From: Bacilli bacterium
Lineage (GTDB): Bacteria > Bacillota_I > Bacilli_A > RFN20 > CAG-826
Length of the DNA: 64,000 bases
Assembly: GCA_045628045.1 (NCBI GenBank)
Contig: JAZQOV010000002.1
Coordinates: 106,826 to 170,825, forward strand
Reading direction: 5' to 3'
Shown here: in pieces, positions 9,961 through 31,457 of the stretch
How the letters are laid out: every line of letters begins with the position of its first letter
Numbering within the stretch: the first letter of the stretch is position 1
Translations under genes and position numbers: made by a program
The notes under the pieces: generated by a model
Database searches by the model: none
Told to the model about the DNA's origin: nothing
Seen by the model: only the letters and a program-made list of their open reading frames with translations

Positions 9961-9991
9961 ACTTGCGAATTACCTTTGGTATAATTCAGTT

Positions 9992-11251: not shown

Positions 11252-11342
11252 ATTAATAGTTCGACAAAATGTGCAATTCTTGCAGTTTTTCTTTACTTTT
11301 TTCTTTAATACTATACTATGTATAACAAAGAGAGGTGCAATT

Positions 11343-12536: not shown

Positions 12537-12599
12537 AATTCGAAAATCAAAATACGAAAAATTTGCGTATTAAAAAATGAAAAAGCGCAAAATAAGATT

Positions 12600-13700
12600 A
12601 TGAAAGTTTTAGTTACAGGATCAAATGGTTTTATTGGAAAACACATGACCAAAGCCTTATTAAAGGCTGGTTATGAGGTTTTCCCATACGATATTGATAA
12701 AACAGAAGAAGACTTAGTTAATTATATTAATGAGACTGATTTTGTTGTTCATTTAGCAGGTATTAATCGACCACTTACTACTGAAGAATTTTATAATGGG
12801 AACACTAACTTCACTAAAAAGGTAGTGGATTTAATAAAAGAAAGTGGTCGAAATACTCCTATAATCATGTCTAGCTCTATTCAAGCAGCATTAGATAATG
12901 ATTATGGAAAATCTAAAAAGATGGGAGAAGACTTCTTATTTAAGTCTGGACTTCCTGTCTTTGTATTTAGACTTGCTAATGTATTCGGAAAGTGGTGTAG
13001 ACCAAACTACAATAGCGCGGCTGCTACATTTATGTATAACATAGCGCACAATCTTCCTATTGAGATTAGAGATAGAAATTACGTTGTCCATTATAACTAT
13101 GTCATTGACATTGTTAATACATTCTTAGAATGCATAAAAGGAAACATTAAGCCTTCAAAAGAAGTGTTATCTGTTTCTCCAGTTCACGATTGTTCACTTG
13201 GCACTTTAGCGGACACTCTTACCTACTTTAAAAACACTGTGGAATCAGATGAACACTTACCTCTTATTAAAAATGAGTTTGAGTTTAAGTTATTTGTCTC
13301 TTTCATGGATTATCTTTCTGAGGAAGGCTATTCCTTTAACTTCGCGGAAGATGCACGTGGATCATTTGAAGAAATATATAAATCAAAAAAATATGGTCAA
13401 ATTTCACTAAATACATCTTTCCCTGGAATCACTAAAGGTGGTCATTATCACACTTACAAAAATGAAATATTCATGACCGTTAAAGGTGATTGTGTTACAA
13501 GACTTAGAAAGATTGGAACCTCCGAAATACTTGAATATCCTCAACATGGAAAAGATTCAACAAGGGTTAAAATCATTCCAGAATACACTCACGATATTAA
13601 AAATGTTGGAAGTGAAGAATCAGTTACTATAATGTGGATTTCTGAAGTTTACTCTGATAAGACTCCAGACACATTTAGAGAAGACGTCGATATTAAATAA
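12600..13700 (+). CDS. fnlB: UDP-L-FucNAc pathway reductase/epimerase (FnlB/CapF), SDR plus cupin
   Basis: VTGSNGFIG, HLAGINRP, YGKSK, NVFGKWCRPNYNS, DARGSF, GITKGGHYH. Confidence 0.9.
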   Translation: MKVLVTGSNGFIGKHMTKALLKAGYEVFPYDIDKTEEDLVNYINETDFVVHLAGINRPLTTEEFYNGNTNFTKKVVDLIKESGRNTPIIMSSSIQAALDNDYGKSKKMGEDFLFKSGLPVFVFRLANVFGKWCRPNYNSAAATFMYNIAHNLPIEIRDRNYVVHYNYVIDIVNTFLECIKGNIKPSKEVLSVSPVHDCSLGTLADTLTYFKNTVESDEHLPLIKNEFEFKLFVSFMDYLSEEGYSFNFAEDARGSFEEIYKSKKYGQISLNTSFPGITKGGHYHTYKNEIFMTVKGDCVTRLRKIGTSEILEYPQHGKDSTRVKIIPEYTHDIKNVGSEESVTIMWISEVYSDKTPDTFREDVDIK

Positions 13701-13719
13701 TAAATATAGGAAAAAGATA

Positions 13720-13747
13720 AAAGCACTGGGAATTCCCGGTGTTTTTC
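13720..13747 (+). terminator. Intrinsic terminator after fnlB
   Basis: aagcactggg-aatt-cccggtgttttt. Confidence 0.75.
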
Positions 13748-13881
13748 ATAATCTTTTGCCTATATTTACATAATTTTCTCGTATTACAAAATGTGTTGAC
13801 TCTTCTAAATAATATAGTTGTCCCTAGTAGATAGAGCTCATCTATTAGGAACACTTAATATTAAGAAAGGAAAATCAAATT

Positions 13882-14091
13882 ATGTTTGTATTACTTAAAC
13901 TTATGGGATGCGTAGTATGGATCACTGCAATTATTCTTGCATTTGTCTTTATTGGAAAATCTGTTAGCGCATTTCGTAATGAAGATACTACTGGTTCAAA
14001 AGTAGGATGGATCTTGGCAACAATTGCTAACTTAATAATTGGTGCTGGTATTGGATTACTTTTCTACCAAGTAGCAGCACTTATTAAGTAG
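13882..14091 (+). CDS. Small 2-TM membrane protein
   Basis: AAGAAAGGA RBS, two hydrophobic helices. Confidence 0.7.
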   Translation: MFVLLKLMGCVVWITAIILAFVFIGKSVSAFRNEDTTGSKVGWILATIANLIIGAGIGLLFYQVAALIK

Positions 14092-14118
14092 TTATAAAAC
14101 TTTTGGAGGTAAGAAAAT

Positions 14119-14361
14119 ATGAAAACAGCCAGAAGATTTTATAAAGCGATTGCTTGCATTGTGGCTATGTTATTTATCGCAACACTAGTGTTATACATAA
14201 TCTTAATGATTAGGTCATTCACAAGAGGTGTTGATGGACTAACTGCAGGCTTTCTAGTAGTTGGTATTATCGCATTACTTATCGTTGTGCCTACACTTGC
14301 TAACTTTTTTATGGGAAGAGGCTGCAAGTGCGATAAATACCATCTAAATCAAAAAGAATAA
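14119..14361 (+). CDS. Small 2-TM membrane protein
   Basis: GGAGGT RBS, two hydrophobic helices; followed by terminator ggacac-atccgt-gtgtcctttt (~14386-14407). Confidence 0.7.
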   Translation: MKTARRFYKAIACIVAMLFIATLVLYIILMIRSFTRGVDGLTAGFLVVGIIALLIVVPTLANFFMGRGCKCDKYHLNQKE

Positions 14362-14540
14362 CTCACCCTCCCGAGTTTATCTTATGGACACATCCGTGTG
14401 TCCTTTTCTTTTGTTTTTGTCGCATTTGTCGCAACAATTTGAAGTATTACTAATACGAAAATTTAATCATGTCGTATAAATTGCGACACAAAACAACAGA
14501 AAATATTGCAAAATTATGACAAATGCCATAAACTTTAGGC

Positions 14541-15863
14541 ATGGAAAAATTAATATCACAAAGAAAAGACCTTGGACTTACTCAAGGCGAAGCCGCAAAG
14601 GCACTTGGAGTTTCACTTCGTACATATCAAAGATATGAGAGTGAAGGAACTCTTGATGAAACAAAATTAAATAAGATCTGTGCGGATCTAAAAATGAAAT
14701 GTGGCAAAGTCACATATAAAGGATTTTTAGACAATGGAAAACTCAAACTTTTAATTATTGTTGGAACAAGACCAGAAATCATTCGTCTTGCTGCAGTAAT
14801 AAATAAATGTAGAGATTACTTTGATGTCATTTTAGCGCATACAGGTCAAAACTATGATTACAATCTTAATGGTGTTTTCTTTAAAGACCTTGGAATCAAA
14901 GATCCAGATGTTTACTTAAACGCAGTTGGAAAAGATCTTGGGGAAACCATGGGAAATATCATTGCAAGATCATATGAGCTTATGGTGGAGATTAAACCAG
15001 ACGCAGTTTTGGTTCTTGGAGACACAAATTCATGTCTTTCAGTAATTGGAGCAAAACGTCTTCATATTCCAATCTTCCATATGGAAGCTGGAAATAGATG
15101 CAAAGATGAATGTCTTCCAGAAGAAACAAACAGAAGAATTGTTGATATTATCTCTGATGTTAACCTCGCATATTCTGAGCATGCACGCAGATATCTCGCG
15201 GATACAGGACTTCCAAAAGAAAGAACTTATGTTACAGGTTCACCAATGGCGGAAGTTCTCACCAATAACATTAAACAAATTGAATCAAGTGATATTTTGA
15301 CTCGCTTGAATCTAAAAAAAGGAAAATACATTCTTCTTTCCGCACATCGTGAGGAAAATATTGATACAGAGAAAAACTTCTTGTCCTTGTTTAACGCTAT
15401 TAACAAGATGGCAGAGATTTACGATATGCCAATCTTGTATTCATGCCATCCAAGAAGTAAGAAAAGACTTGAATCATCAAAGTTTAAACTTGATGAAAGA
15501 GTCATCATGCATGAACCACTTGGATTCCATGATTACAATAACTTACAAATGAATGCTTTCTGTGTTGTATCTGATTCAGGTACTCTTCCAGAAGAATCAA
15601 GCTTCTACGCAAGTATTGGTAAGCCAATTGCGGCAGTTTGTATTAGAACATCCACTGAAAGACCAGAAGCTTTAGATGATGCTTGCTTCGTTTTAGCGGG
15701 TATTGATGAAAAGAATCTTCTTCAAGCAGTGGAAGTAGCAATCAAAAACAAAGCTGGATGTCATCCAGTAGATAATTACGTAGACACGAACGTATCAGAC
15801 AAAGTTGTTAAGTTAATACAATCTTATGTTGGTGTTGTTAATAAAATGGTGTGGAGAAAATAA
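14541..15863 (+). CDS. fnlC: XRE-HTH fused to UDP-N-acetylhexosamine 2-epimerase (FnlC/CapG)
   Basis: N-term TQGEAA..SLRTYQRYE; VGTRPEIIRL, HTGQNYD, LGDTNS, HMEAGNRC, SDSGT, TERPE. Confidence 0.9.
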   Translation: MEKLISQRKDLGLTQGEAAKALGVSLRTYQRYESEGTLDETKLNKICADLKMKCGKVTYKGFLDNGKLKLLIIVGTRPEIIRLAAVINKCRDYFDVILAHTGQNYDYNLNGVFFKDLGIKDPDVYLNAVGKDLGETMGNIIARSYELMVEIKPDAVLVLGDTNSCLSVIGAKRLHIPIFHMEAGNRCKDECLPEETNRRIVDIISDVNLAYSEHARRYLADTGLPKERTYVTGSPMAEVLTNNIKQIESSDILTRLNLKKGKYILLSAHREENIDTEKNFLSLFNAINKMAEIYDMPILYSCHPRSKKRLESSKFKLDERVIMHEPLGFHDYNNLQMNAFCVVSDSGTLPEESSFYASIGKPIAAVCIRTSTERPEALDDACFVLAGIDEKNLLQAVEVAIKNKAGCHPVDNYVDTNVSDKVVKLIQSYVGVVNKMVWRK

Positions 15864-15994
15864 TCCACACCTTTTTTATAATGTTGAAATAGTTTTTTGC
15901 CAATAGACCGAATAGGTTGTATTGGTGAATTTTAATAAAACTCTTTCATATTATGAATACATATGCTATCATATGTTTGCAAAAGGAATCAGTT

Positions 15995-16450
15995 ATGGCA
16001 TTTAATCAAAGAGAATACACAAACGATTACAACAAAAATACATATAAAATGTATCCTTTTAGGGTGAAGCAAAACTCTACCTCAGTTATTGAGAAGCTTA
16101 AATCTGTGCCAAGTATGAACGCATATGTTCTCTCACTAATTGAAAATGACATTAATCCAGGTGTATTAACTCTTAAGATGATAAAAGATCGTATTTTGCC
16201 TGTGTTAAATAAGCATAACATTAACGAGGTTTATTTGTTTGGGAGCTATGCTCGTGGAGAAGCAAATAGGGATAGCGATTTAGATATATATTGTGAAAAA
16301 GGTGATATAAAGTCATTCATTGATCAAGAAATGCTTGAAGATGAGCTTAAAAACGCATTAGGGAAGGATGTTGATATTGTTTTTATTGGATCCAAGATGG
16401 ATGATTTCTTTAAATCACAATTAGAAGGAGATAAAATTAGAATATGTTAA
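15995..16450 (+). CDS. Minimal nucleotidyltransferase antitoxin (MntA-like) with N-terminal RHH-like extension
   Basis: LFGSYARGEA..DSDLD and KDVDIV motifs; AAGGA RBS. Confidence 0.85.
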   Translation: MAFNQREYTNDYNKNTYKMYPFRVKQNSTSVIEKLKSVPSMNAYVLSLIENDINPGVLTLKMIKDRILPVLNKHNINEVYLFGSYARGEANRDSDLDIYCEKGDIKSFIDQEMLEDELKNALGKDVDIVFIGSKMDDFFKSQLEGDKIRIC

Positions 16451-16788
16451 CAATTAAAGAACAAGGCTTATTGCTCGGAATAATAAAACACTGTGATAAA
16501 ATTCTTGAAAAGATTAATAGAATTACAAGAGTTCAATTTGATGAAGACGAGGATGTTATTCAGATTGTCTGCTTTAATATTTTGCAAATTGGAGAACTTG
16601 TAAAACATTTTGATGTTTCTTTCACAAGCAAATTTAATGAAGTCCCATGGAGTTTAATTGCACGCATGAGAGATAAAGTCGCTCATGGATATGGAACAAT
16701 TGATATTGATATAGTGTGGGGAACCGCAACAAAAGATATATCTTCTTTAAAAGCCTATTGTGAAAAGATTCTTAAGGAAAATATATAA
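16444..16788 (+). CDS. HEPN RNase toxin (HepT/DUF86)
   Basis: IGELVK, VPW..IARMRDKVAHGY (RxxxxH), IDIDIVW; overlaps the MNT gene. Confidence 0.88.
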   Translation: MLTIKEQGLLLGIIKHCDKILEKINRITRVQFDEDEDVIQIVCFNILQIGELVKHFDVSFTSKFNEVPWSLIARMRDKVAHGYGTIDIDIVWGTATKDISSLKAYCEKILKENI

Positions 16789-16794
16789 TACTTA

Positions 16795-16924
16795 ATAAAA
16801 GATAACACCTCTAATCTAAAGCATCGAACGTAATTTATAAGTGAAATACTAGTGTTTTCTTTTATCTCTTTTGCATATTCTATATGCGAGCGTACTTAAG
16901 TAGTGAACTTCATTTGCAAAAGAG
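16795..16924 (+). repeat. Spacer repeat R1 (hairpin A) plus hairpin module T
   Basis: aaagataacacct...gcatcgaacgtaatttataagtgaaatact-agtgttttctttt, then ctcttttgca...gagcgtacttaagtagtgaacttcatttgcaaaagag. Confidence 0.9.
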
Positions 16925-17059
16925 CTGCTAGAGGATGATAACACAGTAAAATTGAATTGCATAATAAGTATGATGTGTTAAAATAGCACTAGAAAATTTG
17001 AATAACTAAGTTAAATAAATTTGCAAAATTAAAATGATATATTATTGCAATTAGAGAAA

Positions 17060-17839
17060 ATGAATAGAAAAACATTCGAAGGATCAATTACTATTGAACA
17101 TGAAGGCATAACTTATTATGTTTCAGATCTTTCCTATACAATTTGGGAAGATGATTCTTTTGAATTCGTGTTTACTCCTAATTATTTTGTTATTGATTTA
17201 CTTCCAACAAGCGTTTTTCAAGGAATTCCTGGATTAAATCTTGATGAAAGAAAAGAAAAGTATGTTCGCAAAAACATAATGCCGACATTTATTTCTGAAA
17301 GAGTTCCTCAAAAAAATAGGGAAGATTTCTTTGAACTTCTAGAAGAAGCTGGTATGGACTATTTAAATCCAATTGAATATTTGCTAAAAACAAAAAAACA
17401 ATATAGCGGTGATCCTCTCAAACTTAAAGAAAAGAACGTTAAAACATTAGTGAACATAAACGAATTAGCAGTTAAAAACAACACATTTGGATTAACAAAA
17501 ATAATTTTGGATAATCTCGCTAAAGGAAATGATGTTTTCTATGAGGGATCAATTATTGATAACACTAATAGAAAAGCATTCTTTAATGTTCTTCATGCTT
17601 TATATGTAAAAACTTTAAAGGGAAGAGAAGCTACTAGAAATGCAGGAATAGAAAAAGCAAGACAATCTGGTAAATATAAAGGAAGAAAACCAGTTCAAGT
17701 TGATATGGTTTTATTTAATGAATCACTCAAAGATATTTCTAATGGAGTAATTAGTGTTTCAGAAGCATGTAAAAGACTTAATATCTCCGTGGATAAATTC
17801 TATCGTGTTAGAAAAATAGTTAATAAAGAATCTAAGTAA
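17060..17839 (+). CDS. Hypothetical protein: HipA-N-like region plus resolvase-type C-terminal HTH (no catalytic recombinase domain)
   Basis: FISERVP..NREDF..LL..AG....P..YL; C-term GIEKAR..GKYKGRKP...VSEACKRLNISVDKFYR. Confidence 0.6.
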   Translation: MNRKTFEGSITIEHEGITYYVSDLSYTIWEDDSFEFVFTPNYFVIDLLPTSVFQGIPGLNLDERKEKYVRKNIMPTFISERVPQKNREDFFELLEEAGMDYLNPIEYLLKTKKQYSGDPLKLKEKNVKTLVNINELAVKNNTFGLTKIILDNLAKGNDVFYEGSIIDNTNRKAFFNVLHALYVKTLKGREATRNAGIEKARQSGKYKGRKPVQVDMVLFNESLKDISNGVISVSEACKRLNISVDKFYRVRKIVNKESK

Positions 17840-17949
17840 AGATAACACCTCTTAAGCATTGAACGTAATTTATAAGTGAAATGCTAGGTGTTTTCTTTTA
17901 TTCTTTTCTCATTAGAGAAGCGTATCAAGTTCTTGCAGGTCAAGAAAAA
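17838..17949 (+). repeat. Spacer repeat R2 (hairpin A plus hairpin B)
   Basis: Near-identical to R3/R6; overlaps the stop codon of the preceding gene. Confidence 0.92.
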
Positions 17950-17993
17950 CGCAAAATAATAACCATTTGCTAATCAAAGCAAAGCAAAATGTT

Positions 17994-18040
17994 AGTTTAA
18001 GAAGGTAGATGTTGACAATGTACCTTCCGAAACTTACAAT
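17994..18040 (+). promoter_or_regulatory. Sigma-A promoter with an overlapping inverted repeat (likely AbiEi operator)
   Basis: TTGACA(18012)-N17-TACAAT(18035)-N6-ATG; agttt..gaaggta...taccttc..aaact palindrome spans the -35. Confidence 0.75.
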
Positions 18041-18046
18041 ATAGTC

Positions 18047-18598
18047 ATGATTTACACAACGAAACAACTTCTTAAAAAACACAAAAACAACACAAGTATT
18101 AACAGAATGGAGAAATCCGGAAAACTTTTTAGGGTTGCTCAGGGTGTTTATTCTGACGAACAAACTAATGTTGCGGATTTAGAAAGCATATTTCTTGTGT
18201 ATAAAAATGCTATTTTAACTAACGAAAGTGCATTTGCCTTTTATGAATTAACCGACAACATTCCTGAAAAGTACTCAATAGTAACTCCACTTAAGTCACA
18301 TAGAATTAGCTTTAAAGGTGTTGAGCAAAGCTATATGCAAGATTCAATTTTAAAAATTGGATTAACTAAAGCAAAAACAGAGTATGGATATATTAATATA
18401 TATGACAAAGAAAGATTACTTGTTGAATTGTTTAGACTCCGCAACAAGTTTTCTTATGAGCTTTACAAAGAAGTAGTGGCAAATTATAGAAAACTTGCTA
18501 TAGAAAATAAAATAGATTTTCTTAAGGTTTTTAAATATTGCGATAAGTTCGCATATGGCAAGACGATAAGAAAGATTATTGAGGAGGTAATCATATGA
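18047..18598 (+). CDS. abiEi: Type IV TA antitoxin AbiEi family
   Basis: GKLFRVAQGVY, ESAFAFYELTD.IP, IYDKERLLVE. Confidence 0.85.
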   Translation: MIYTTKQLLKKHKNNTSINRMEKSGKLFRVAQGVYSDEQTNVADLESIFLVYKNAILTNESAFAFYELTDNIPEKYSIVTPLKSHRISFKGVEQSYMQDSILKIGLTKAKTEYGYINIYDKERLLVELFRLRNKFSYELYKEVVANYRKLAIENKIDFLKVFKYCDKFAYGKTIRKIIEEVII

Positions 18599-19401
18599 AA
18601 ACAATCAGTGAACTTGTAAAAGATAAAATAAATCTTTTTAATATGAATAGAGTTGAGGCAGAGAGCTATGTTTGCCAAGAAATTATAATCAATAAAATTG
18701 CCAAATCTGAGCTTGTTGATAGAACATTCCTAAAGGGTGGTGTTGTGTTGTTTAACATGTCAAAGAATGAACGCCGCACAACAAGAGATATTGATTTTGA
18801 TTTAGCACACTACGATATATCCACAGAAGAATCTATGAAAAACTTGGTTTACATGTTAAATAAAAGAGACTCTGAATACGTTGTTACCTACATTAAAAGT
18901 GATCAGCTACATCAAGACGATTATAAAGGCAGAAGACTTTATCTCAAAGTGTCTGATAAAAGTGCTACATTAAAAATTACGATTGATGTGGGTGTTCACA
19001 CTTTATTTGCAATTAATCAACTTGATTCAATTTTTACATTTAATAATGACAATAACAAAGTAGTGGTTAAAGTGAACCCACCTGAGCAAATGATAGCAGA
19101 GAAACTTTATTCTTTAGCAAAACACACTATAGTGTCACAAAGATATCGTGATCTTTATGATGTATATTACCTTCTAAAGAACACTAAAGTTGAAAAGAAG
19201 GTAGTTCGTCAATGTTTTGAATTGCTTTTAATTAATAATATGCATGGTTTTAATGATTTGAGTGATGTTATCTCTAGAATTGATGAAACCCTCTCAAATG
19301 AAGTGTTTAAAGAAAGAACTGAAAATGCTTCTAAGAAATGGATTGATATTGACTATCTTACTTTAAAAGAAACAATTCTCAATTTGTTATATAACATCTA
19401 A
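18595..19401 (+). CDS. abiEii: Type IV TA toxin AbiEii nucleotidyltransferase
   Basis: FLKGG, RTTRDIDF, EQMIAEK, RYRDLYD. Confidence 0.9.
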   Translation: MKTISELVKDKINLFNMNRVEAESYVCQEIIINKIAKSELVDRTFLKGGVVLFNMSKNERRTTRDIDFDLAHYDISTEESMKNLVYMLNKRDSEYVVTYIKSDQLHQDDYKGRRLYLKVSDKSATLKITIDVGVHTLFAINQLDSIFTFNNDNNKVVVKVNPPEQMIAEKLYSLAKHTIVSQRYRDLYDVYYLLKNTKVEKKVVRQCFELLLINNMHGFNDLSDVISRIDETLSNEVFKERTENASKKWIDIDYLTLKETILNLLYNI

Positions 19402-19408
19402 TAACTTT

Positions 19409-19522
19409 AAAGATAACACCTCTTAAGCATTGAACGTAAGTTATAAGTGAAATGCTAAGGTGTTTTCTTTTATCTCTTTTCTTGATAGAGAAGCGTAGCA
19501 ATTTCTCGTATGACAAGAAAAG
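19409..19522 (+). repeat. Spacer repeat R3 (hairpin A plus hairpin B)
   Basis: aaagataacacctcttaagcattgaacgtaagttataagtgaaatgctaaggtgttttctttt plus ttttcttgatagagaagcgtagcaatttctcgtatgacaagaaaa. Confidence 0.92.
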
Positions 19523-19547
19523 CCTCAATTTAATATATAGAAATTTA

Positions 19548-19705
19548 TTTACTTAATGAAGACGTTTGTTAATGTAAGTATAGAGTTCACCCATGATAGT
19601 TAATGACTTCGCCTAGTGGGAACTTTTTTATTTACTATTTAGTTTTTTCAAATATAATGTAAATAGCAGGACATGAGCGAATTAAGTTTCGAGGGGCCTG
19701 CTTTT
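19548..19705 (+). ncRNA. Two tandem candidate small-RNA units (promoter, hairpin, U-tract)
   Basis: TTTACT-N16-TAATGT then agttc-accca...tgggaact-tttt; TTTACT-N16-TATAAT then agcagg...cctgct-ttt; no ORF. Confidence 0.4.
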
Positions 19706-19790
19706 AATTTACTTTATTTCCGATATTTTCCGTTTTTTGTCTGTTTTTGAAAGAGAAACATTAGCAAATTCTCGTATAACAAAAAAGATG

Positions 19791-20600
19791 TTAAATTTTG
19801 ATTCCTGAAATGTCTAAGAAATTATCGATTGAGAATCCTGGCATGTAATTACATGTGGATATGTCCGTTCCAAGTTTGTTAAACGACTCCCCAAAATGAT
19901 ATGCCTTATCATCAACAAACAAATATCTATCGTGAAACTTATCAACCTTTATTACCTTATATTTGTCTGATTCAAATGATTCGTTCTTTGGATGAGTAAT
20001 TACCACAACCTTTGCTGGGCTGTGTAATAAAATTTCATCAAATGTGTGATCAAAATAGTTATCAATGATTACTATTAATTTTTTAGCACTTTTCAATATT
20101 TCTTCTAACATAAACAAGGCATCAATACGATTGGCTTCTTTTAGTGTTAAGGATTTGTTTTGGAAATCTTTAATTTCGTAAATTTGATTTTGAAGATCAA
20201 TAATTTTTTCTTTGCATTCTAAGCAAGAAAAGTTGGGTTTTGCAAAAATGTATTGTTTTAAAACATAATTTGCCCATTGTCTAAATAACGTTCCTCTCTT
20301 TCCGTTCACTCTATAGCCCACAGATAAGATAACATCCAGGTTATAAAGGTCAATTTCTCTAGAGACGTTTCTTTCACCTTCTAATTGAACAGTTGCATTT
20401 TTTGCAACAGTTGAAATTCTTAATAGTTCGTTGCTGTTATAAATATTATTTATGTGTCTAGAAATTGTTGATTTATTCTTTTCGAAAAGAGCAGCAATAT
20501 CATTCAATGAAAGCCATACAGTATCTTCCGTTGGAGAAACATTAACTGGCAATGAAAAGTCTCCATCTTTGAATGTTAAGATTTCAAATTTTTTGTCCAT
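19791..20600 (-). CDS. RhuM-like DNA-binding protein with C-terminal PLD-like domain
   Basis: TVWLS...IAALF, YNLDVILSVGYRVNGKRG..FRQWA; C-term IIDNY, FHDRYLFVD..YHFGES. Confidence 0.8.
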   Translation of the reverse strand: MDKKFEILTFKDGDFSLPVNVSPTEDTVWLSLNDIAALFEKNKSTISRHINNIYNSNELLRISTVAKNATVQLEGERNVSREIDLYNLDVILSVGYRVNGKRGTLFRQWANYVLKQYIFAKPNFSCLECKEKIIDLQNQIYEIKDFQNKSLTLKEANRIDALFMLEEILKSAKKLIVIIDNYFDHTFDEILLHSPAKVVVITHPKNESFESDKYKVIKVDKFHDRYLFVDDKAYHFGESFNKLGTDISTCNYMPGFSIDNFLDISGIKI

Positions 20601-20773
20601 TTTAGGTTCCTCCTTATATTAAAAATAACAATCTTTTAATCGAACAAGATTGATGCGGTTTTTGCATCTGTGTAAATTATAATATGCACGCATTGAAAAG
20701 ACAAGCATAAATTGAAAATATTTTATTTATTTTTTGCATAATGTTAAAATGATGCAGTAAGGGGAAAATAGGT

Positions 20774-21106
20774 ATGGATAAATTAGAGGAAGAAATTTCA
20801 GAACGTATTAAAGAAATGATGGAAAAGCGTAAGGTCACTCAAAGTGATCTTGCTAGTGAGCTTGGAGTGCACCAATATGACATTTCACGCATGTTAAACG
20901 GCAAGCCTTTTCCATCTATTTCTCAATTAAAATTGATAGCGAACTATCTTGATTGTTCTTTGTATTATCTAATTGGAATACAAGAAGAATCATATCGTGA
21001 GCTATCACCTGAAACTAGAAAGATAGCTAATGCATATCAATGCGCTAATGAAACCATTAAAGCAGTAGTAGATCTGGTACTCACAAATAAAAAGATAAGT
21101 AAATAA
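20774..21106 (+). CDS. XRE-family HTH transcriptional regulator
   Basis: TQSDLASELGV....ISRM..G..P....L..IA.YL.CSL.YL. Confidence 0.88.
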   Translation: MDKLEEEISERIKEMMEKRKVTQSDLASELGVHQYDISRMLNGKPFPSISQLKLIANYLDCSLYYLIGIQEESYRELSPETRKIANAYQCANETIKAVVDLVLTNKKISK

Positions 21107-21171
21107 AAAAGATAACACCTGATTAAGCATTGAACGTAATTTATAAGTGAAATGCTAAGGTGTTTTCTTTT
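21107..21171 (+). repeat. Spacer repeat R4 (hairpin A only)
   Basis: aaaagataacacctgattaagcattgaacgtaatttataagtgaaatgctaaggtgttttctttt immediately after the stop codon. Confidence 0.92.
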
Positions 21172-21228
21172 GCTATATATGATAAAAGTTATAATATATT
21201 TATAATTTAGTAAAGGCACTTTATTAAT

Positions 21229-22413
21229 ATGGTTAATTTAATTAGAAGAATATTTATTAAGAATTACAAAGACATTAATGATCCTATTGTACGTGAGAAG
21301 CACGGCACAGTAGCATCAATATTTGGAATGGTAATGAATGTTATCTTATTTGCGATTAAATTTGTTATTGGTTTAATTGCTTCATCAATGTCAATTATTT
21401 CTGATGCTTTAAATAACTTAACAGACCTTTTTAGCAACATCGCTAGTCTGGTTGGTTTTAAAATTGCAAATAAACCTGCAGATAAAAAACATCCTTATGG
21501 TCATGAAAGAGTGGAATACATTACTGGAATGATAATTTCATTCATCATCATTGCTGTTGGTATTGTGCTTGGATACACTGCAGTGAACAAATTAATCACC
21601 AAAGATGTCGTAACTACATTCTCTATTTGGTCATTTGTCATTCTTGGCGTATCAATATTTGGCAAGATCTTGCTTGGATTATTTAACAAAGGAATGGGAA
21701 AAGCAATTAACTCAGTTTCTTTAAAAGCAAGTATGCAAGATTCATTTAATGACGCAATATCGACATCACTTGTTTTAATTGCCGCTATTATTTCCTACTT
21801 TGTAGGTGAATCAGTGTGGTGGCTTGATCCTGTTATATCAATAGCAATTGGTGGTTTTATTGTTTATTCGGGAATTAAGCTCGTTTTTGAAACAGCTTCT
21901 CCATTAATTGGACTTTCTCCAGACACTGACTTTGTTAAAGCGGTGGTGAATGATGTACTTTCATTTAAAGGAGCACTTGGAATTCATGATATCGTGTGTC
22001 ACTCATATGGCCCTACTAAGAAGTTCATAACACTTCATGTCGAGGTTGATGGATATGAAGATGTTATGAAACTTCACGATATGATTGATAACATTGAAGA
22101 ATGCATCGCTAAAAAATATAACTGTGAAATCACAATTCACATGGATCCAATAGACACTAAAAATAAAGAAATCCCTGTTTTAAAAGAAAAAATAGAAGAT
22201 ATTCTTAAACATATCTCACAGGAGATAACATTCCATGACTTACGCCTTGTGAATGGCCCAAGTCACACGAATGTGTTATTTGATATCGTTATACCTCCGG
22301 TTAAAGACATTAATAAAGATGAAGTCATTAATGCTTTAATTAAAGGCGTTAAAGAAATAAACCCTAAATATAACTTAGTGATTAAAGTAGATAACTCATA
22401 CACCCATGGATAA
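21229..22413 (+). CDS. Cation diffusion facilitator family transporter
   Basis: SDALNNLTD, KPADKKHPYGHERVEY, DSFND, GIHD...H.YGP. Confidence 0.92.
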   Translation: MVNLIRRIFIKNYKDINDPIVREKHGTVASIFGMVMNVILFAIKFVIGLIASSMSIISDALNNLTDLFSNIASLVGFKIANKPADKKHPYGHERVEYITGMIISFIIIAVGIVLGYTAVNKLITKDVVTTFSIWSFVILGVSIFGKILLGLFNKGMGKAINSVSLKASMQDSFNDAISTSLVLIAAIISYFVGESVWWLDPVISIAIGGFIVYSGIKLVFETASPLIGLSPDTDFVKAVVNDVLSFKGALGIHDIVCHSYGPTKKFITLHVEVDGYEDVMKLHDMIDNIEECIAKKYNCEITIHMDPIDTKNKEIPVLKEKIEDILKHISQEITFHDLRLVNGPSHTNVLFDIVIPPVKDINKDEVINALIKGVKEINPKYNLVIKVDNSYTHG

Positions 22414-22414
22414 C

Positions 22415-22526
22415 AAGAAAACACCTCTAAAGCATTAAACAAAATTCATAAGTGAAATGCTAGGTGTTTTCTTTTATCTTTTTTCTTGATAGAGAAGCGT
22501 AGCAAGTTCTCGTAGATCGAGAAAAG
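22415..22526 (+). repeat. Spacer repeat R5 (hairpin A plus hairpin B)
   Basis: aagaaaacacctctaaagcatt...aagtgaaatgctaggtgttttctttt plus module B. Confidence 0.9.
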
Positions 22527-22735
22527 CCGACATTTAGTAGCCTTATATAGGGAATATTTCAAAATAACTTGTTGTTATAGGTTTTTTCCTATATTCAACA
22601 TCATGTTTTGTTATTTTATTTTTTTCTTATTGGAACGAACAATATAGGTGAGGAAGGGAAGTAAAATGTTGTTAGACTTCTCGTGAAGAATTGCTTCTCT
22701 CTCCTCACTTAAAAAAGAAAGGAAAATAACAATAA

Positions 22736-23152
22736 ATGAAATTCTTAAGATGTAAGAAATGTGGTCAGATCGTCGGTGTTGTAAAAGACACGGGGGTCCC
22801 AGTTATTTGCTGTGGTGAGACAATGGAAGAACTCATCCCTCATGTTGATGAAAAGGGATTAAGTGAGAAACACATTCCAGTGTACGCAGTAAAGAAAGGC
22901 AAATGCATCGCCAAAATAGGTATGATCCCTCACCCAATGACAGATGATCACTATATTGAATGGGTCGCACTCGTCACAAACAAGGGGAACCAAAGAAAAG
23001 AACTTGAACCTGGTAAATCCCCTCGCGCAGAATTTTCTCTCGATGAAGACGAGGTTGTAGAGGAAATCTACGCGTATTGCAATCTCCATCAGCTTTGGAA
23101 ACTTGATTTAAAGAAAAACAAAGACTGTGGATGCAATATCAAAACAAAATAG
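22736..23152 (+). CDS. dfx: Desulfoferrodoxin / superoxide reductase
   Basis: CKKCG...CCG, EKHIP, HPM...HYIEW, YAYCNLH. Confidence 0.92.
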   Translation: MKFLRCKKCGQIVGVVKDTGVPVICCGETMEELIPHVDEKGLSEKHIPVYAVKKGKCIAKIGMIPHPMTDDHYIEWVALVTNKGNQRKELEPGKSPRAEFSLDEDEVVEEIYAYCNLHQLWKLDLKKNKDCGCNIKTK

Positions 23153-23328
23153 TTCAAGTTTTATATACATAGATTTTCTCTCCTTAAGTGAACCGTTCCT
23201 CTTATCTATTACCCTCGTAGGAGGACGGTTCACCTAGGAGATAAGTGGTGAAAACTAACCAGAGTGAACGTACATCGTAGTGAACTCACATACTTCACCA
23301 CCTGACAAAAAGGAAAGGAAGATAACTC

Positions 23329-24363
23329 ATGAAAAGAAACGTAATTAAAGCATTAGTATATGACTCCAAAGGATTCGTTGAAGAATTTTTCGAGATTGCT
23401 AACAAAGGAAGAATTAAGTTTAGTTACACTAGTGATAAGCTCAATGCTAACACTGTTAAAACAGCAGAAAGCTACGACACGATTGTGGCATTTGTTAACG
23501 ACACTATAGACAAAAGCGTAATAGACGCACTAGTAAAACAAGGAAAGAAAGCAATCTTCTTGAGAAGCAGCGGATTTAATAATGTTGATCTTAATTACAT
23601 TGATGGGAAATTTAAAGTATTTAGAGTTCCTGCCTATTCACCAGAAGCAGTAGCGGAACACGCCTTTGCGCTAATACAAACTTCAAATAGAAGGATACAT
23701 AAAGCTTATATTAGAACTAGAGAGTTCAATTTCTCCTTAGACGGGTTGATAGGGAATAATCTAAATAATAAAACCATCGGAATTATTGGAACTGGGAAAA
23801 TAGGGCGAGTCATGATTGATATCGCTAATGGATATAAAATGAATGTAATTGCCTATGATCCATACCCAGTTCCTGATCCAACTAACCTTAGTTACGTTTC
23901 TCTTCCTGAGTTACTTTCTAGAAGTGACATTATTTCACTACATTGTCCTTTAATTAGTGACACCAAGTACTTGTTAAATAAGGAAACCTTAGCGCTCACT
24001 AAGAAAGGCGTAATGATTGTGAACACTTCTAGAGGAGGCCTTATTGATTCTAGAGCGCTCCTAGATGCGATCAAATCTCGTCATGTTTCGAGTGCATGTT
24101 TAGATGTCTACGAAGAAGAAACAAATATCTTTTTTGAAGATAAGTCAAATCACATTCTAGATGATGAAGTACTGAGAGATTTAATTTCCATGCCAAATGT
24201 GATTGTAACTTCTCATCAAGGCTTCCTAACTCATGAAGCTTTAGAAAATATTGCTAACACTGTTATTAGTAACATCATCAGTTTCTTTGATGGTACCCCT
24301 AGAACTGAAAATGAAGTTATTTTAAGTGGTAGTAGCAAACAAAATGAAAGGAAATCAAAATGA
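23329..24363 (+). CDS. ldhA: D-lactate dehydrogenase (D-2-hydroxyacid dehydrogenase family)
   Basis: FVND, GFNNVD, VPAYSPEAVAEH, GTGKIG, SLHCP, NTSRG, LDVYEEE, TSHQGF. Confidence 0.88.
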   Translation: MKRNVIKALVYDSKGFVEEFFEIANKGRIKFSYTSDKLNANTVKTAESYDTIVAFVNDTIDKSVIDALVKQGKKAIFLRSSGFNNVDLNYIDGKFKVFRVPAYSPEAVAEHAFALIQTSNRRIHKAYIRTREFNFSLDGLIGNNLNNKTIGIIGTGKIGRVMIDIANGYKMNVIAYDPYPVPDPTNLSYVSLPELLSRSDIISLHCPLISDTKYLLNKETLALTKKGVMIVNTSRGGLIDSRALLDAIKSRHVSSACLDVYEEETNIFFEDKSNHILDDEVLRDLISMPNVIVTSHQGFLTHEALENIANTVISNIISFFDGTPRTENEVILSGSSKQNERKSK

Positions 24364-24602
24364 GTAAAAGACAAAGAGCAAGGTATTTTAGATTTATGGG
24401 GTTTGTAACATGCATTGTATCAATCGCTATGATTGTTGGTCTTGTGATCACCATTGTTGGTCAATTCAAAGATGCTGTAAAAGCATGGCCAATCATCGCT
24501 AACTTCTTAAATATCTTAGCAGTACTTGGAGTAGGCTTAGGACTTACTAACTTATTCTATTCTCATGCTTGTGTATTAGATGATGAATACTGTGCTAGAT
24601 AA
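24360..24602 (+). CDS. Small 2-TM membrane protein
   Basis: GAAAGGA RBS, translationally coupled to ldhA; resembles the 14119 ORF. Confidence 0.7.
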   Translation: MSKRQRARYFRFMGFVTCIVSIAMIVGLVITIVGQFKDAVKAWPIIANFLNILAVLGVGLGLTNLFYSHACVLDDEYCAR

Positions 24603-24647
24603 TTACCTATGTGATCCAGATGAAGATTCACATGAATTAGATTATTA

Positions 24648-24762
24648 ATAAAGAGAACACCTCTTCAGCATTGAACGTAATTTATAAGTGAAATGCTAGG
24701 TGTTTTCTTTTATCTCCTTTCTTGATAGAGAAGTGTTGCAAGTTCTCGTATAGCAAGAAAAG
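24648..24762 (+). repeat. Spacer repeat R6 (hairpin A plus hairpin B)
   Basis: aaagagaacacctcttcagcattgaacgtaatttataagtgaaatgctaggtgttttctttt plus module B; followed by gtgaagtc...gacttcac hairpin (~24810-24838). Confidence 0.92.
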
Positions 24763-24898
24763 TGCCGCTGGAATAGGGTATATATGAGACTATTGATATA
24801 CGTCTCAATGTGAAGTCTATTTAGTCATACGACTTCACTTGTATATTGTTGAGAATTATAGAATAAAAGGTAGAATATAGGTAGAAAAGAGGCTGCTT

Positions 24899-26848
24899 AT
24901 GATAATATCGAATGAACTTATTAAATCTTATATAGAAATTATTAACAATCACAAAAGTAAAGTTGAGAGCATTGCAAACATGTTTGCTTCAAGTTCGTCT
25001 GAATTTAAGACTTTATTGCAAGAATATAACGATATTTGCAAACCCGATCCAAATTTTATTAATTTTAATTTTGAAAGATATCTTATTTTTTCTGAAAAAG
25101 TAAAAGATTTCAGTAAATATGTTTTAAACTTAAGTACATTTAATGAGATTATTGGTAGACTTGCTGAAACTGATCTTAGTAATGCTTATTACAAATTGAT
25201 TAAGCATTTCATTGAAACTTTAAAATCTAATGATTTTGATTACTGTTATGAGAATTCACTTAATTATAAAGCAGCTTCTGACACTGTCACAAAATTAAAT
25301 TGCATACTTAATTCTTTTAACAATAATATGACCGATTTTATTACCAATAATCAGAAAAATTTAGAACCAATATTTCTTTTTTACGATTTAAAAGAAATCA
25401 AAAACAATATAACTTTAATTGGAACTAATGGTTCTGGAAAAAGTAGGTTTTCTAGACAATTGTTAACGTTTAGTGACAATCCAAATTTCGTTGTTATTGC
25501 CGCCCAACATTTTTTGGGTTTTGAATTAGATGGAAAAGTAGATTTGAATGCTGGTGGAATTAATTTAGATGGTTATCAGAAAAGTGACAAGCTTAGCGTT
25601 AGTGCAAGCGATCAATTCTATCAAAAAGAATTTGGCGTTTTAATGAACAAACTGAGAAGCGAACATATTAGAGAAAGGTATACAAAAGGGGTCGTATCAA
25701 CAATTTTTAACAAAGTTAAAGAATTGTTTCATGAGTTAATACCAGCAAGAGAAATAGAATATGATTTTGACACTTCGAAGTTTTATGCTGTCCCACCCAA
25801 TGGTATTAAATATGATGTTAATAATATGAGTGATGGTGAAAAAAGCATTCTATTTTATATTCTTCATATTATATTTTCTGATGAGCATTCCTTTATAATT
25901 GTTGATGAACCTGAAAATCATCTTCATTCAGATATTTGCACAAGATTGTGGGATAAACTTGAAGAAATCAGACCAGACTCTATTTTTATTTACCTGTCTC
26001 ATAATATAGATTTTATTGCATCGCGCAAAAATTCAACGATTATTTGGAACAAAAAGTTCGATTATCCACAAAAATGGGATTTCGAATTACTAAAAGACAA
26101 TGAATTGCCAAAACAACTTTATTTAGAAATACTTGGAACAACGCCGCCTGTTTTGCTTTGCGAAGGCTGCAAGAATTCTAAAGACATTAAAGTATATGAG
26201 GAGTTATTTAGTGACTATAAAATTAGACCATGTTCAAGTTGCAACGATGTTAAAGAATATGTAAAAACAATAAAAAGATTAGATGTTTTTAAAAATAAAA
26301 CAGTGAATGGAATTATTGACTTAGATACACGAAACGAAAAAGAAGTTGAACATTGCGTTAGGGATGGAGTTTTTGTTTTGAATGTAGTTGAAATTGAAAA
26401 TCTTCTTTTTGTGCCAGAATTATTAGACAAAATATTTGATAAGTATTCTAGTGATGAACAGAAAAATAATTTTTTTGATTCCTTTTATAGTAAAGCAAGT
26501 GAAGAATTGCCAAGGATGGTAAATAGAACTTTAAAAGATTATTTCGTTAAGGATGTTCAAAGCAATGATAGGGACTCTTTTGCTGAACAGGTTAACACCA
26601 AATATAAAGCAATAAGTTTTGCTGACCAGGTAAGCGCGAAGAAAACTGAGCTTGAAAACGAATTTAGAGAGATTATTGAAACTAGAAATTATGATTGCGC
26701 GTTAAAGAAATTCGATTTCAAAAATCAACTCTATTATATAGGCGAATCAATTATAAGAGATTATTTAGAGAAAGCGGTCGATATTCTTCACTCTGATAAG
26801 GCTTTAGCTGATTTAATAAAAGCAAAGTATATCAGAACAAATATTTAA
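24899..26848 (+). CDS. ABC/AAA ATPase fused to a TOPRIM (DUF4435-like) domain; PARIS-fused/OLD-like defence protein
   Basis: Walker A GTNGSGKS, MSDGEK, VDEPENHLH, LSH; TOPRIM LLCEG and GIIDLD; EIEN. Confidence 0.8.
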   Translation: MIISNELIKSYIEIINNHKSKVESIANMFASSSSEFKTLLQEYNDICKPDPNFINFNFERYLIFSEKVKDFSKYVLNLSTFNEIIGRLAETDLSNAYYKLIKHFIETLKSNDFDYCYENSLNYKAASDTVTKLNCILNSFNNNMTDFITNNQKNLEPIFLFYDLKEIKNNITLIGTNGSGKSRFSRQLLTFSDNPNFVVIAAQHFLGFELDGKVDLNAGGINLDGYQKSDKLSVSASDQFYQKEFGVLMNKLRSEHIRERYTKGVVSTIFNKVKELFHELIPAREIEYDFDTSKFYAVPPNGIKYDVNNMSDGEKSILFYILHIIFSDEHSFIIVDEPENHLHSDICTRLWDKLEEIRPDSIFIYLSHNIDFIASRKNSTIIWNKKFDYPQKWDFELLKDNELPKQLYLEILGTTPPVLLCEGCKNSKDIKVYEELFSDYKIRPCSSCNDVKEYVKTIKRLDVFKNKTVNGIIDLDTRNEKEVEHCVRDGVFVLNVVEIENLLFVPELLDKIFDKYSSDEQKNNFFDSFYSKASEELPRMVNRTLKDYFVKDVQSNDRDSFAEQVNTKYKAISFADQVSAKKTELENEFREIIETRNYDCALKKFDFKNQLYYIGESIIRDYLEKAVDILHSDKALADLIKAKYIRTNI

Positions 26849-27055
26849 TTATTAGATATTATTTCCTTTAGTGGTTAATTATATTTGATATAAATATTGG
26901 TAGAGCCTGTTATTTAAATACTTAGAGATTAAGCACCATTTACATATGGTGCTTTATTTTCTCTTTTGCAAAAGAGTCGGTAATTAATGCTATTTCATTA
27001 CGTATTTATGAAGTGGCTATCTAGGTGAGATACGCCACATTGGTGAAGTCTATTT
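26844..27055 (+). repeat. Spacer repeat S1 (modular)
   Basis: ttaattattagatattatttcctttagtggttaattatatttgatataaatattggtagagcctg; collapsed T module ctcttttgcaaaagag; gtggc..gccac; closely matches S3. Confidence 0.9.
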
Positions 27056-27156
27056 ATTGCTCGTGTATCCACTAGCGAGCAACAATACGAATTCACCCCA
27101 CTGGGTAGGGTAATATATGGTGTTTAATGAAATGAATTATGGTGTATAATAAAGAA

Positions 27157-28311
27157 ATGACTAATTCAATTTTAATAATTGGAAACGGCTTCGACCTAGC
27201 TTGTAACTTAAAGTCAAAATTTTCAAATTTTTTAACTGATGAAAAACTTGAACAATTACGTGCTAATCCATACTCTTGTGAAAATTTCTGGTATTTATTA
27301 TCTGCATTAAAATTCAATAAAAATGCTGACAACGAAGAAAATCATATATTCCCCATTCTTGCAAAAGACGATTATCTTTGGATGGATATTGAATCTTTGA
27401 TTAAAGAAGTTTCAACTTCTAAATTACCAAGGTATTACGCACAATTTTTCAAAGAAAATAATTATTTAGCGCTTTTCACTTCCGCTTTTGTGAATAGAAA
27501 TAATAATATGTTTTTGGCTAAAGATAATGAATTTTCTTACTTACGAATGTTTTTTATAAAAAGATTTCCCAATATTTTTGAGCAAACAATCAATATAATT
27601 GATTTCTTGAAATTAGAATTAGAAAAATTTGAAAGAACATTTGCTGCATATTTAATTGAGTCAATTAGAACAACTGATAATTATTACGAAAAAGCATATG
27701 AACTTTTTGGTTTTTTGGGTTGCACTGGAGTGAATCCTGATTTTTTGATTGATTTTAATTACACACACGATGACGAAAAATTTAATGAATTATTTGGAAA
27801 CGATAATAGAATTTTTATTCATGGTTCGGTTAAAAATAAGCCTATTATCGGATTCGATTCTTCTAATATTTCTAGTGATGCACCCGTGTTATTGAGTAAA
27901 GCATGGCAGAAAATGTCATCAAATATTAGTGGTGTAAAGCTGCCACAATTTGACGAAGAATTTGAGATTAAATTTTTCGGTCATTCACTTGGTGAACAAG
28001 ATTACTCATATTTTCATGCATTATTTGATCGCTATGATATTTATAATAAAAAGGTTTCTCTCTGTTTTATCTATAGCCGATATAAGGATGATGAAAAAGA
28101 GAATGATGAAATAACAAAAACATATTGTAATGATGTTTATAAATTATTAAATGATTATGCATTGAGAAGTGGAAAAGAAAGTAATTACAGAACATTAATT
28201 AGTAGATTACAAATAGAAAACAGGTTACACATTTATGAATTAAAAGAGTATGTAAAAAGTCATTCTTTTTCCGAACAATTCAAAGAAATAAAAGCAAAAG
28301 GAAATGAATAA
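27157..28311 (+). CDS. AbiH-family (SIR2-like) abortive infection protein
   Basis: LIIGNGFDLA, W.DIE, DFNYT, IHGS, FFGHSLGEQDYSYF; start placed after TATAAT-N6. Confidence 0.82.
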   Translation: MTNSILIIGNGFDLACNLKSKFSNFLTDEKLEQLRANPYSCENFWYLLSALKFNKNADNEENHIFPILAKDDYLWMDIESLIKEVSTSKLPRYYAQFFKENNYLALFTSAFVNRNNNMFLAKDNEFSYLRMFFIKRFPNIFEQTINIIDFLKLELEKFERTFAAYLIESIRTTDNYYEKAYELFGFLGCTGVNPDFLIDFNYTHDDEKFNELFGNDNRIFIHGSVKNKPIIGFDSSNISSDAPVLLSKAWQKMSSNISGVKLPQFDEEFEIKFFGHSLGEQDYSYFHALFDRYDIYNKKVSLCFIYSRYKDDEKENDEITKTYCNDVYKLLNDYALRSGKESNYRTLISRLQIENRLHIYELKEYVKSHSFSEQFKEIKAKGNE

Positions 28312-28417
28312 AGACACTATGAATCGCCTAATAGATTTAATTGATTTAGATAAATATAATGATGAACCTGAGTATAAGGCTACTTTAGAGGAATTCTTTT
28401 CTTCTTTAGATGATTAA
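28304..28417 (+). CDS. 37-aa acidic micro-ORF overlapping the abiH-like stop
   Basis: AAAGGA RBS; MNKDTMNRLIDLIDLDKYNDEPEYKATLEEFFSSLDD. Confidence 0.4.
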   Translation: MNKDTMNRLIDLIDLDKYNDEPEYKATLEEFFSSLDD

Positions 28418-28460
28418 TACTTTTTGAAATATTAAATATAATTAACTTCTAATTTATATC

Positions 28461-28656
28461 TATTATATTAGGAACCTTATGGTTCCTTTTATTTTAATTA
28501 TTAGATATTATTTCCTTTAGTGTTCAATTATATTTAATATAAATATAAGATAAGGTAAATAAGAATTAATAGGTAGCAATTATTGCTACATTTTTAATCT
28601 TTTTTGCAATTAATAAATGTGAGCGTAGTTTACTAGTGAACAGATTTGCAAAAGAG
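28461..28656 (+). repeat. Spacer repeat S2 plus module T
   Basis: taggaacc-ttat-ggttcctttt attttaattattagatattatttcctttag...; tttttgca...gagcgtagtttactagtgaac..tttgcaaaagag. Confidence 0.88.
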
Positions 28657-28750
28657 CCGGCGGTGGTAGCCTTATATATCGTTTTCAATATATTGAAATG
28701 AGGTACACGATAAAAATATGCCGAAATTAATTTATAAGTTTTTCTCTTAG

Positions 28751-28882
28751 AGAATATAAGAAGAGTCATATCGTGAACTAGCACCCGAGACTAGAAAGAT
28801 AGCTAATACATATCAATCTACTAATGATGCAGTCAAACGAGTTATTAACTTAGTACTATTGAATAAAGACTCAATCAATTGA
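28751..28882 (+). pseudogene. 3' remnant of an XRE gene paralogous to 20774-21106
   Basis: RI*EESYRELAPETRKIANTYQSTNDAVKRVINLVLLNK versus GIQEESYRELSPETRKIANAYQCANETIKAVVDLVLTNK; HTH half missing, in-frame TAA. Confidence 0.85.
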
Positions 28883-29095
28883 TAATGATAACAGCCGATT
28901 AAGCACTAATAAAATTTGAAAATGGATGCAAGTGTTGTTTGAACAAACGAAATTTATTAACATAAAGTGATAATTACAGGGAATTTCCTTTATAAGGAGG
29001 AGTGTTTCAAATTTTAGTCCTTTTTCAATTTTGTGAAAAAAACTTGCACAAAAATGAATAATCGTGTAATCTTTAGATAATATCGAGGTAAACAC

Positions 29096-30355: not shown

Positions 30356-30360
30356 TTAAA

Positions 30361-31237: not shown

Positions 31238-31457
31238 TGAATTTATTGTAGAGTGTGTGAACGGGCGGCTAAGCTCATTGTTTCTTTTTAACCAATTGAA
31301 AATAAAGATAGAAATGGTTAGTTTATGAATTTTTTTAATTTGTTTCCAGTCGGTTAAGACTTGTTTTATGCCGGTTTATTAAGCAACAGCAATTATTCAT
31401 TTGTTTATGATTGCGGATTATAAAATCAAATTTAATTAACACGCAAGTATATCTTTT

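Follow-up and report, generated by a model that had tools for sequence, protein, structure and literature searches.

In the parts of the literature available to us, the systems closest to the locus described here are integron arrays and clusters of attC sites lacking integron-integrases (CALINs), in which an imperfect hairpin follows the stop codons of unrelated genes (PMC5027507, PMC4889954), and tandem accretions of integrative and mobilizable elements (IMEs) and cis-mobilizable elements (CIMEs), in which modules are stacked behind one gene (PMC5704250). The attC core is defined there as RYYYAAC/GTTRRRY (PMC5027507), and complete integrons are reported as lacking in the surveyed Firmicutes and Tenericutes (PMC4889954). 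Here, we analyzed a 64,000-nucleotide stretch of DNA (the window) from the genome of an uncultured gut Bacilli bacterium (G000; 1.07 Mb, 14 contigs, 96% complete). Behind the wecB gene, in a capsule locus, toxin-antitoxin, defense, and metabolic modules are stacked in an arrangement that varies between strains, and the joints of this region carry a repeat, R, and two hairpins, S and hp2 (Table 1).

By the tests run here, the array belongs neither to the integron arrays nor to the tandem CIME accretions, although it works like either. It shares with integrons the hairpin after unrelated stop codons, an order that varies by strain, and a cargo of toxin-antitoxin and defense genes. The hairpin S further recalls attC in its sequence-fixed outer stem, its unpaired spacer, and its structure-conserved inner stem with an unpaired G; unlike attC as portrayed in those sources, S has wobble changes that favor the top strand, and the modules hold several genes with promoter-like sites. 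As in CIME accretion, modules are stacked behind one gene, the 3' end of which is duplicated in two related genomes (G017 and G033). However, the duplicate comprises ~200 bp plus a terminator instead of a short att core, the locus holds no integrase, the window is without the wecB duplicate, and S also stands behind other genes. SPRITE of Streptococcus pneumoniae, as the available part of its description has it, resembles R in being a terminator-like repeat with a long stem that lies near the 3' ends of genes and was probably co-opted as a terminator, but it has 30 dispersed copies, whereas R is limited to one 8-kb array and coupled to S or hp2 (PMC3049150). Judging from a similarly partial source, the oriIS of ISCR1/IS91 in complex class 1 integrons likewise combines a fixed end, a variable region, and a repeated host segment (PMC6218425), although no transposase gene lies between the repeats here and the likeness meant is one of layout. 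The GTAG/CGTC repetitive extragenic palindromes (REPs), in the accessible portion of their description, are also extragenic imperfect palindromes downstream of genes with a short unpaired end tag (PMC3733652). In contrast to them, the tag after the S stem is mostly C-C/T-G and not GTAG or CGTC, S is ~60 nt rather than 20 to 40 nt long, its copies cluster in groups of three to five, and no REP-associated tyrosine transposase (RAYT) was found (Y1_Tnp in 0 of 3 genomes). The listings obtained from the literature searched, which included few subscription papers and was queried in part with guessed taxon names, showed no such element.

We read R as the left, terminator half of a two-part joint whose second half is S or hp2, and we propose that exchange takes place at the right foot of S or hp2, a reading that we hold with about as much belief as doubt. 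It draws, among other things, on the points at which flanking sequences part. When two copies have the left flank in common and differ on the right, they part 0 to 4 nt after the stem in each of 14 pairs of S and 6 pairs of hp2, these 20 breakpoint pairs representing four independent sets. The 16 S copies have 14 distinct right flanks and 11 distinct left ones, and the stem is followed by C at +1 and by G at +3 in 13 of 16 copies each. Both arms were present in all 22 S matches (20 by pattern, 2 by eye), and this lack of half-sites speaks against a reading of S as a pair of abutting transposon ends; the R rows that the pattern marked as left-only likewise have both arms.

The same edges appear in contigs of other strains, which were taken from animal gut runs (X1, X2, and X5) and placed on the window at 82 to 88% likeness, so that some of them may stem from other organisms. 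A contig of X1 follows wecB to 15925, continues with 508 other letters, returns at the R3-hp2 joint, skips 266 nt between two hp2 copies, and then enters rhuM; the rearrangement rests on this bridging contig and not on missing cover over the MNT-HEPN genes. An hp2 of the R5 type is fused to the flank of the AbiE module at 22527 in both X1 and X2, which belong to two studies. At the foot of S (16925), six contigs of X2 and four of X5 have loose ends of low agreement with other sequence beyond, and further clusters of loose ends fall at the start of R (17837) and at the end of its U-tract (17899 to 17901). These contigs, together with the relatives described below, support the reading of a cassette-like array that differs between strains. 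Relative to the window, all four runs also carry a 3-nt insertion at 24581.

In S, an outer stem of 10 bp is followed by an 8 x 5 internal loop and an inner stem as in R. Across 17 copies, two-sided changes affect 5 of 19 pairs (15 cells) and are confined to the inner helix, numbers reached in 0 of 500 shuffles for cells and in 9 of 500 for pairs; a narrower set of 15 copies retains 2 covarying pairs (6 of 500 shuffles). In the outer helix, the sequence is constant apart from five one-sided changes, all of which lead to G.T on the top strand. A terminator-like stem lies upstream of 19 of the 29 S and hp2 sites (shuffled mean 2.4, maximum 6), in 14 of these 19 at 7 to 9 nt before the hairpin; wecB copies account for six of these 19 stems and R for four. 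The joint family D2 of the window has its own make-up, namely, a GGAACC/GGTTCC hairpin, an AT-rich conserved block, a variable terminator, and then S. Having by eye a similar outer frame, hp2 is likely a shortened or distant variant of S. The apical motif of R has 10 matches in G000, all in the window at 16826-35185 (0 to 1 per shuffled genome in five shuffles), five being R, four S, and one, at 23244-23305, set on a different outer stem. The S model scores the apical part of R weakly (16.5 bits, E 0.53), and therefore common descent of R and S is suggested rather than demonstrated.

Some observations on these hairpins stand apart. Between the desulfoferrodoxin and dehydrogenase genes, 23153-23328 holds two adjacent long hairpins, the second of which has the S motif on a different stem. 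Elsewhere in the genome, a lone hp2 and an hp5-like hairpin precede a Fic gene and a toxin-antitoxin-like pair (L125; G000:C11:22780-22980), behind a leader that we take to be riboswitch-like, of the SAM type. Rfam returned nothing at gathering score beyond six tRNAs, and nothing at E up to 1 within 15800-35400.

Among 61 genomes searched for R and hp2 (37 of the genus and 24 of other families), both were found in three, all within the genus (G000, G017, and G033, the genomes compared here), so that R occurs in two of the 36 further species of this genus. No R was found in the 24 genomes of other families, in metagenome contigs (0), in plasmids, or in phages, nor by eye downstream of four distant HTH (helix-turn-helix) relatives, and the hp2 pattern matched 0 viral contigs. 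The S core pattern had 17 viral matches, which were single and by eye without an outer stem and were taken as chance, and a loose form of the motif gave single matches in 7 more of the 37 genus genomes and in 22 of 401 genomes of the order, 13 of which were folded and all lacked flanking stems. The S model matched in 5 of the 37 genus genomes and convincingly in one (G422) of 150 genomes of the family and in none of 150 of the order; its first pass scores part of its candidates and may therefore miss weak S copies, and weak matches in G268, G094, G054, and G017:C1 were left out of the counts. In all, six genomes carry S (G000, G017, G033, G016, G028, and G422). The S pattern was further found in 7 metagenome contigs and in 8 stretches from the genome collection, five of them from two Bacilli metagenome-assembled genome (MAG) records; inspection covered the eight stretches other than L077 and L084.

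The arrays of G017 and G033 read wecB, S, cargo, R, wecB fragment with terminator, S, other cargo, R, wecB fragment, S, and the repeat unit comprises R, the duplicated wecB 3' end, and S, with differing cargo. Both genomes have three copies of the wecB 3' end, and the other 22 of 24 matching genomes, the window included, have one. Other genes also accompany S: in L169, S and its cargo are flanked on either side by the start of a CoA-binding-domain gene (labelled capD-like); L167, L168, and L170 have a common left flank and differing cargo behind S; and single S copies follow an adhE-like gene in G016 and a desulfoferrodoxin gene in G422, with related metallophosphoesterase-type genes next. In G008, the wecB terminator is without S, and the contig stops ~700 nt beyond; no array follows wecB in G016, G028, or G021. 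One R of G033, truncated at its 3' end (L019:19839-19899), adjoins the promoter of a relB/PIN pair and is not behind a stop codon.

R itself had been described as an attC-like, folded single-stranded DNA recombination site doubling as a terminator, and the two functions fared differently. The six-copy repeat was confirmed at 16797-24711 on the + strand, and its outer stem with AAC/GTT and its inner AGCATT/AATGCT stem are as claimed. A 31-nt core recurs with at most three mismatches in five copies (expected 0.00, 100 shuffles), and BLAST found no R elsewhere in the genome. The top-strand RNA of R2 to R6 folds with z of -4.7 to -6.1 against shuffles, and R1 (z 0.2) is a decayed copy. The outer stem measures ~14 bp and continues beyond GTT into the T-tract. 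The 4-nt bulge is clean in R2, R5, and R6, but R3 and R4 have instead a 4-5 x 1 internal loop. The apical part is indeed more conserved than a terminator needs, but the supposed 19-nt loop is predicted to pair as a further stem (tandem G.A/A.G, then A-T, C-G, G opposite A, and TA/TA); in all five copies of G017 and G033, the apical stem is 3 nt longer.

The terminator function agrees well with these features. The R cores begin 11, 0, 9, 3, 2, and 49 nt (R1 to R6) past the stop codons of six unrelated genes, hence within 11 nt in five of six copies, and all 11 copies analyzed (six in the window, three in G033, and two in G017) end in TTTTCTTTT. With a stable hairpin and a U-tract 3' of a stop codon, R is likely an intrinsic transcription terminator, judging by shape and place, as had been proposed. 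An RNA run (X17) gave no contig on 16760-18000, which speaks neither for nor against termination.

That R would itself be an attC-like single-stranded site with crossover at G|TT is, in contrast, highly improbable. The AAC/GTT pair is present in 11 of 11 copies, the apical part is conserved, and R follows stop codons amid cargo rich in toxin-antitoxin genes. However, a full RYYYAAC or GTTRRRY core occurs in 0 of 11 copies on either strand, and the partial match noted earlier amounts to 1 or 2 of the 4 non-core positions. Two-sided changes affect 0 of 20 predicted pairs, and the TTCTTTT after GTT is invariant whichever module comes next. Pairs of R copies with one flank in common diverge 0 to 1 nt past the U-tract (5 pairs) or 0 to 3 nt before the stem (9 pairs), which are the outer edges of R, and none of the 18 loose contig ends listed (of 84) falls at its GTT (17890 to 17892). 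The modules, as noted, are multi-gene with promoter-like sites of their own. As for shape, R loosely resembles attC, and R2 folds as DNA at -13.1 (top) and -12.1 (bottom) kcal/mol. No integron integrase (IntI) was found in G000 at its 96% completeness. Its three tyrosine recombinases are not on the contig of the array; two resemble XerC and XerD in their sequence and neighbors, and the third, found in 3 of 37 genomes (G000, G017, and G003) and not in G033, scores 103.9 against a cut-off of 265 with the integron integrase model TIGR02249. The attC reading of R is thus not confirmed and largely refuted, leaving the earlier interpretation partly supported overall: the notion of a folded recombination substrate fails for R and fits better the neighboring hairpin S, which was absent from it. 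A dif/Xer site was also considered and rejected, as 24 to 197 of 200 shuffles matched a candidate dif at least as well as R, S, or hp2 did; that candidate lies at G000:C3:11509-11536, ~4 kb from the xerD-like gene. Likenesses to ISL3 ends and to a rolling-circle nick motif are leads at most.

In the two-part joint that we favor, R would end the module transcript; its apical G.A motif may derive from the S family, and R may have increased in copy number together with the joint. S or hp2 would fold on the top strand, the lagging-strand template according to the positive GC skew of this contig, and would be read by a structure-recognizing recombinase or transposase provided in trans. Duplications, such as the wecB 3' copies, could then arise when repeated joints undergo ordinary recombination. 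A broader proposal is doubtful at present: an integron-free cassette system in which single-stranded DNA hairpins (S, hp2, and a derived R, with tandem G.A and an unpaired G) would be attached behind terminators and recombined at the foot by an undescribed structure-specific enzyme, with which small-genome gut Bacilli would stockpile defense and toxin-antitoxin modules in the capsule locus.

Several results weigh against exchange at the foot of S or hp2. One S pair has the right flank in common and parts at the left edge. The breakpoint pairs are non-independent, and recombination anywhere in the 60-nt repeat would give the same picture. Most of the S covariation comes from three related variants, and the structure was drawn by hand from the same S sequences that entered the count. 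As single DNA strands, S and hp2 have no significant fold in the nearest-neighbor model (z -0.8 to -1.7), a standard model that may undervalue sheared G.A pairs. R4 has neither S nor hp2 behind it, a consensus terminator scan with a loop limit of 8 nt did not list R, and no excised circles were seen in the strain data, which consist of contigs.

The search for an enzyme linked to the array also gave none among the tyrosine, serine, Y1, IS110, ISL3, IS1182, and reverse-transcriptase families. Y2_Tnp was found in 0 of 3 genomes, with control genomes equally silent; by eye, no Rep-like protein appeared among 27 HxH-containing open reading frames (ORFs) of G000, and resolvases numbered 0 there. 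A large serine recombinase and an IS1182-type gene occur in G033 only, IS110 in G017 and G033, ISL3 in G017, G033, and weakly G016, and reverse transcriptase in G017 and G033 and not in G000. No recombinase was co-distributed with R, no recombinase-like ORF was seen by eye within 40 kb around the G017 or G033 array, and none of 14 insertion sequence (IS) loci resembled R, S, or hp2, save an hp2 ~300 nt before an IS110 remnant in G017. A TnpB element of G000 was considered as a source and rejected, since its ends do not match the array. Its TnpB-like gene (G000:C11:54895-56043), presumably an IS605-group element, is inserted in a gene, and no TnpA was found; copies of its ends lie at the ends of contigs C3, C9, C10, and C11. 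Contigs of this assembly end within multi-copy elements, and it may therefore lack an enzyme that the bacterium has.

Another possibility is a set of non-autonomous [S-cargo-R] elements, with S as the left end and R as the right end, moved by an HUH transposase (IS200/IS605- or IS91/ISCR-like), which would read the apical motif and insert behind terminator U-tracts, each R serving as the next target. Such elements would account for the motif on the same strand in both hairpins, for S behind unrelated terminators, including the single copies of G016 and G422, and for the wecB terminator without S in G008, which is not a clean empty site because its right flank differs. A fixed end with a variable flank beside a duplicated host segment is also ISCR1-like in the part of that source available (PMC6218425). 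Nevertheless, we consider them distinctly unlikely: Y1_Tnp was found in none of the three genomes, many S copies are without an R partner, and the inner edges (after S and before R) are no less sharp than the outer edges.

As the searches gave no linked enzyme, a strong rival, if an unlikely one in our estimate, is that the repeats undergo homologous recombination. R, S, hp2, D2, and the wecB fragment would then be portable homology for RecA-type recombination and natural transformation with no dedicated enzyme, and their sharp edges would be the limits of a selected RNA or protein-binding element. Compared with the intact gene, the wecB fragments of G017 show 4 to 6 changes, 0 of them non-synonymous, and those of G033 show 5 and 7 changes, of which 1 and 3 are non-synonymous; differing almost only at synonymous sites, the fragments likely derive from working alleles, a pattern that fits allele ends moved by Campbell-type integration. 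The 266-nt skip between two hp2 copies in X1, a ComEC-family gene in 3 of 8 genomes, G000 among them, and the lack of a recombinase that tracks R point in the same direction. However, homologous recombination leaves unexplained why 14 distinct right flanks in 16 S copies all begin 0 to 4 nt after the stem, and why, behind many terminators that are unrelated to one another, S begins where the transcript is predicted to end.

Table 1. Positions of the array anchor, joints, hairpins, and cargo in the window.
Feature	Position	Strand	Remark
wecB-like UDP-GlcNAc 2-epimerase, N-terminal HTH	14541-15863	+	array anchor
wecB terminator and hairpin hp5	15848-15877; 15900-15925	+	X1 departs from window after 15925
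Nucleotidyltransferase + HepT-like toxin-antitoxin pair (cargo)	15953-16788	+	
R1	16797-16863	+	degenerate copy; behind HEPN gene; then S
S	16865-16928	+	candidate exchange site; contigs of other strains depart into other sequence at 16925
ORF (cargo)	17045-17839	+	no Pfam match; nearest Atlas clusters hypothetical or "putative recombinase family"
R2	17837-17899	+	abuts stop codon of ORF 17045-17839; then hp2
hp2 after R2	17900-17953	+	likely distant S variant, judged by eye
AbiEi/AbiEii type IV toxin-antitoxin pair (cargo)	18047-19401	+	own promoter-like site 18012-18040
R3	19408-19471	+	behind abiEii; then hp2
hp2 after R3	19473-19526	+	
Diverged hp2	19738-19792	+	beside rhuM-like gene
rhuM-like gene (-), divergent XRE-HTH gene (+) (cargo)	19791-21106		module precedes R in all three genomes
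R4	21107-21171	+	behind XRE-HTH gene; neither S nor hp2 after it
Cation-efflux (CDF) transporter (cargo)	21229-22413	+	
R5	22413-22475	+	behind CDF transporter gene; then hp2
hp2 after R5	22477-22530	+	type joined to AbiE module flank at 22527 in X1, X2
Desulfoferrodoxin, D-2-hydroxyacid dehydrogenase, 80-aa ORF (cargo)	22736-24602	+	
Apical motif on different outer stem	23244-23305	+	2-hydroxyacid dehydrogenase gene leader; S model 28.5 bits
R6	24649-24711	+	49 nt behind ORF 24360-24602; then hp2
hp2 after R6	24713-24766	+	
AriAB-like ATPase, AbiH, AbiL-like pair (further cargo)	24899-31059	+	
Joint family D2, four copies near 26844, 28461, 31452, 34964	26844-35073	+	each shortly upstream of S
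Collapsed S	26960-26980	+	outer arms only
S	28598-28660	+	two compensatory pair changes
S	31599-31662	+	
S	35144-35205	+	last joint before capsule genes resume

Capsule genes restart at 35313. By eye, the ORF at 17045-17839 has a HipA-N-like front fused to a resolvase-type C-terminal helix and an HTH, without the catalytic N-terminus; its Atlas neighbors score 0.96 to 0.97, and the ORF was not seen in the G017 and G033 arrays. A remnant of the 3' end of the XRE-HTH gene at 28752-28905 is 74% identical to 20976-21129. XRE-type HTH domains are fused to the N-termini of sugar-nucleotide enzymes at 9944-15863 and 36385-37110, and an Abi_2 family gene at 60829-61813 is split over two overlapping frames, possibly by a frameshift.

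If homologous recombination alone acts here, the locus is a clear but ordinary repeat-driven hotspot, and R alone is a slightly unusual terminator. If, on the other hand, S is truly a recombination site read by its structure, it would be a second solution to cassette capture and would point to a new enzyme; the predicted cut position, 0 to 4 nt after the stem, makes this reading of S directly testable. These results emphasize that this lineage shuffles defense and toxin-antitoxin modules at hairpin joints, although the Firmicutes and Tenericutes surveyed in the available part of the integron literature are without complete integrons (PMC4889954).

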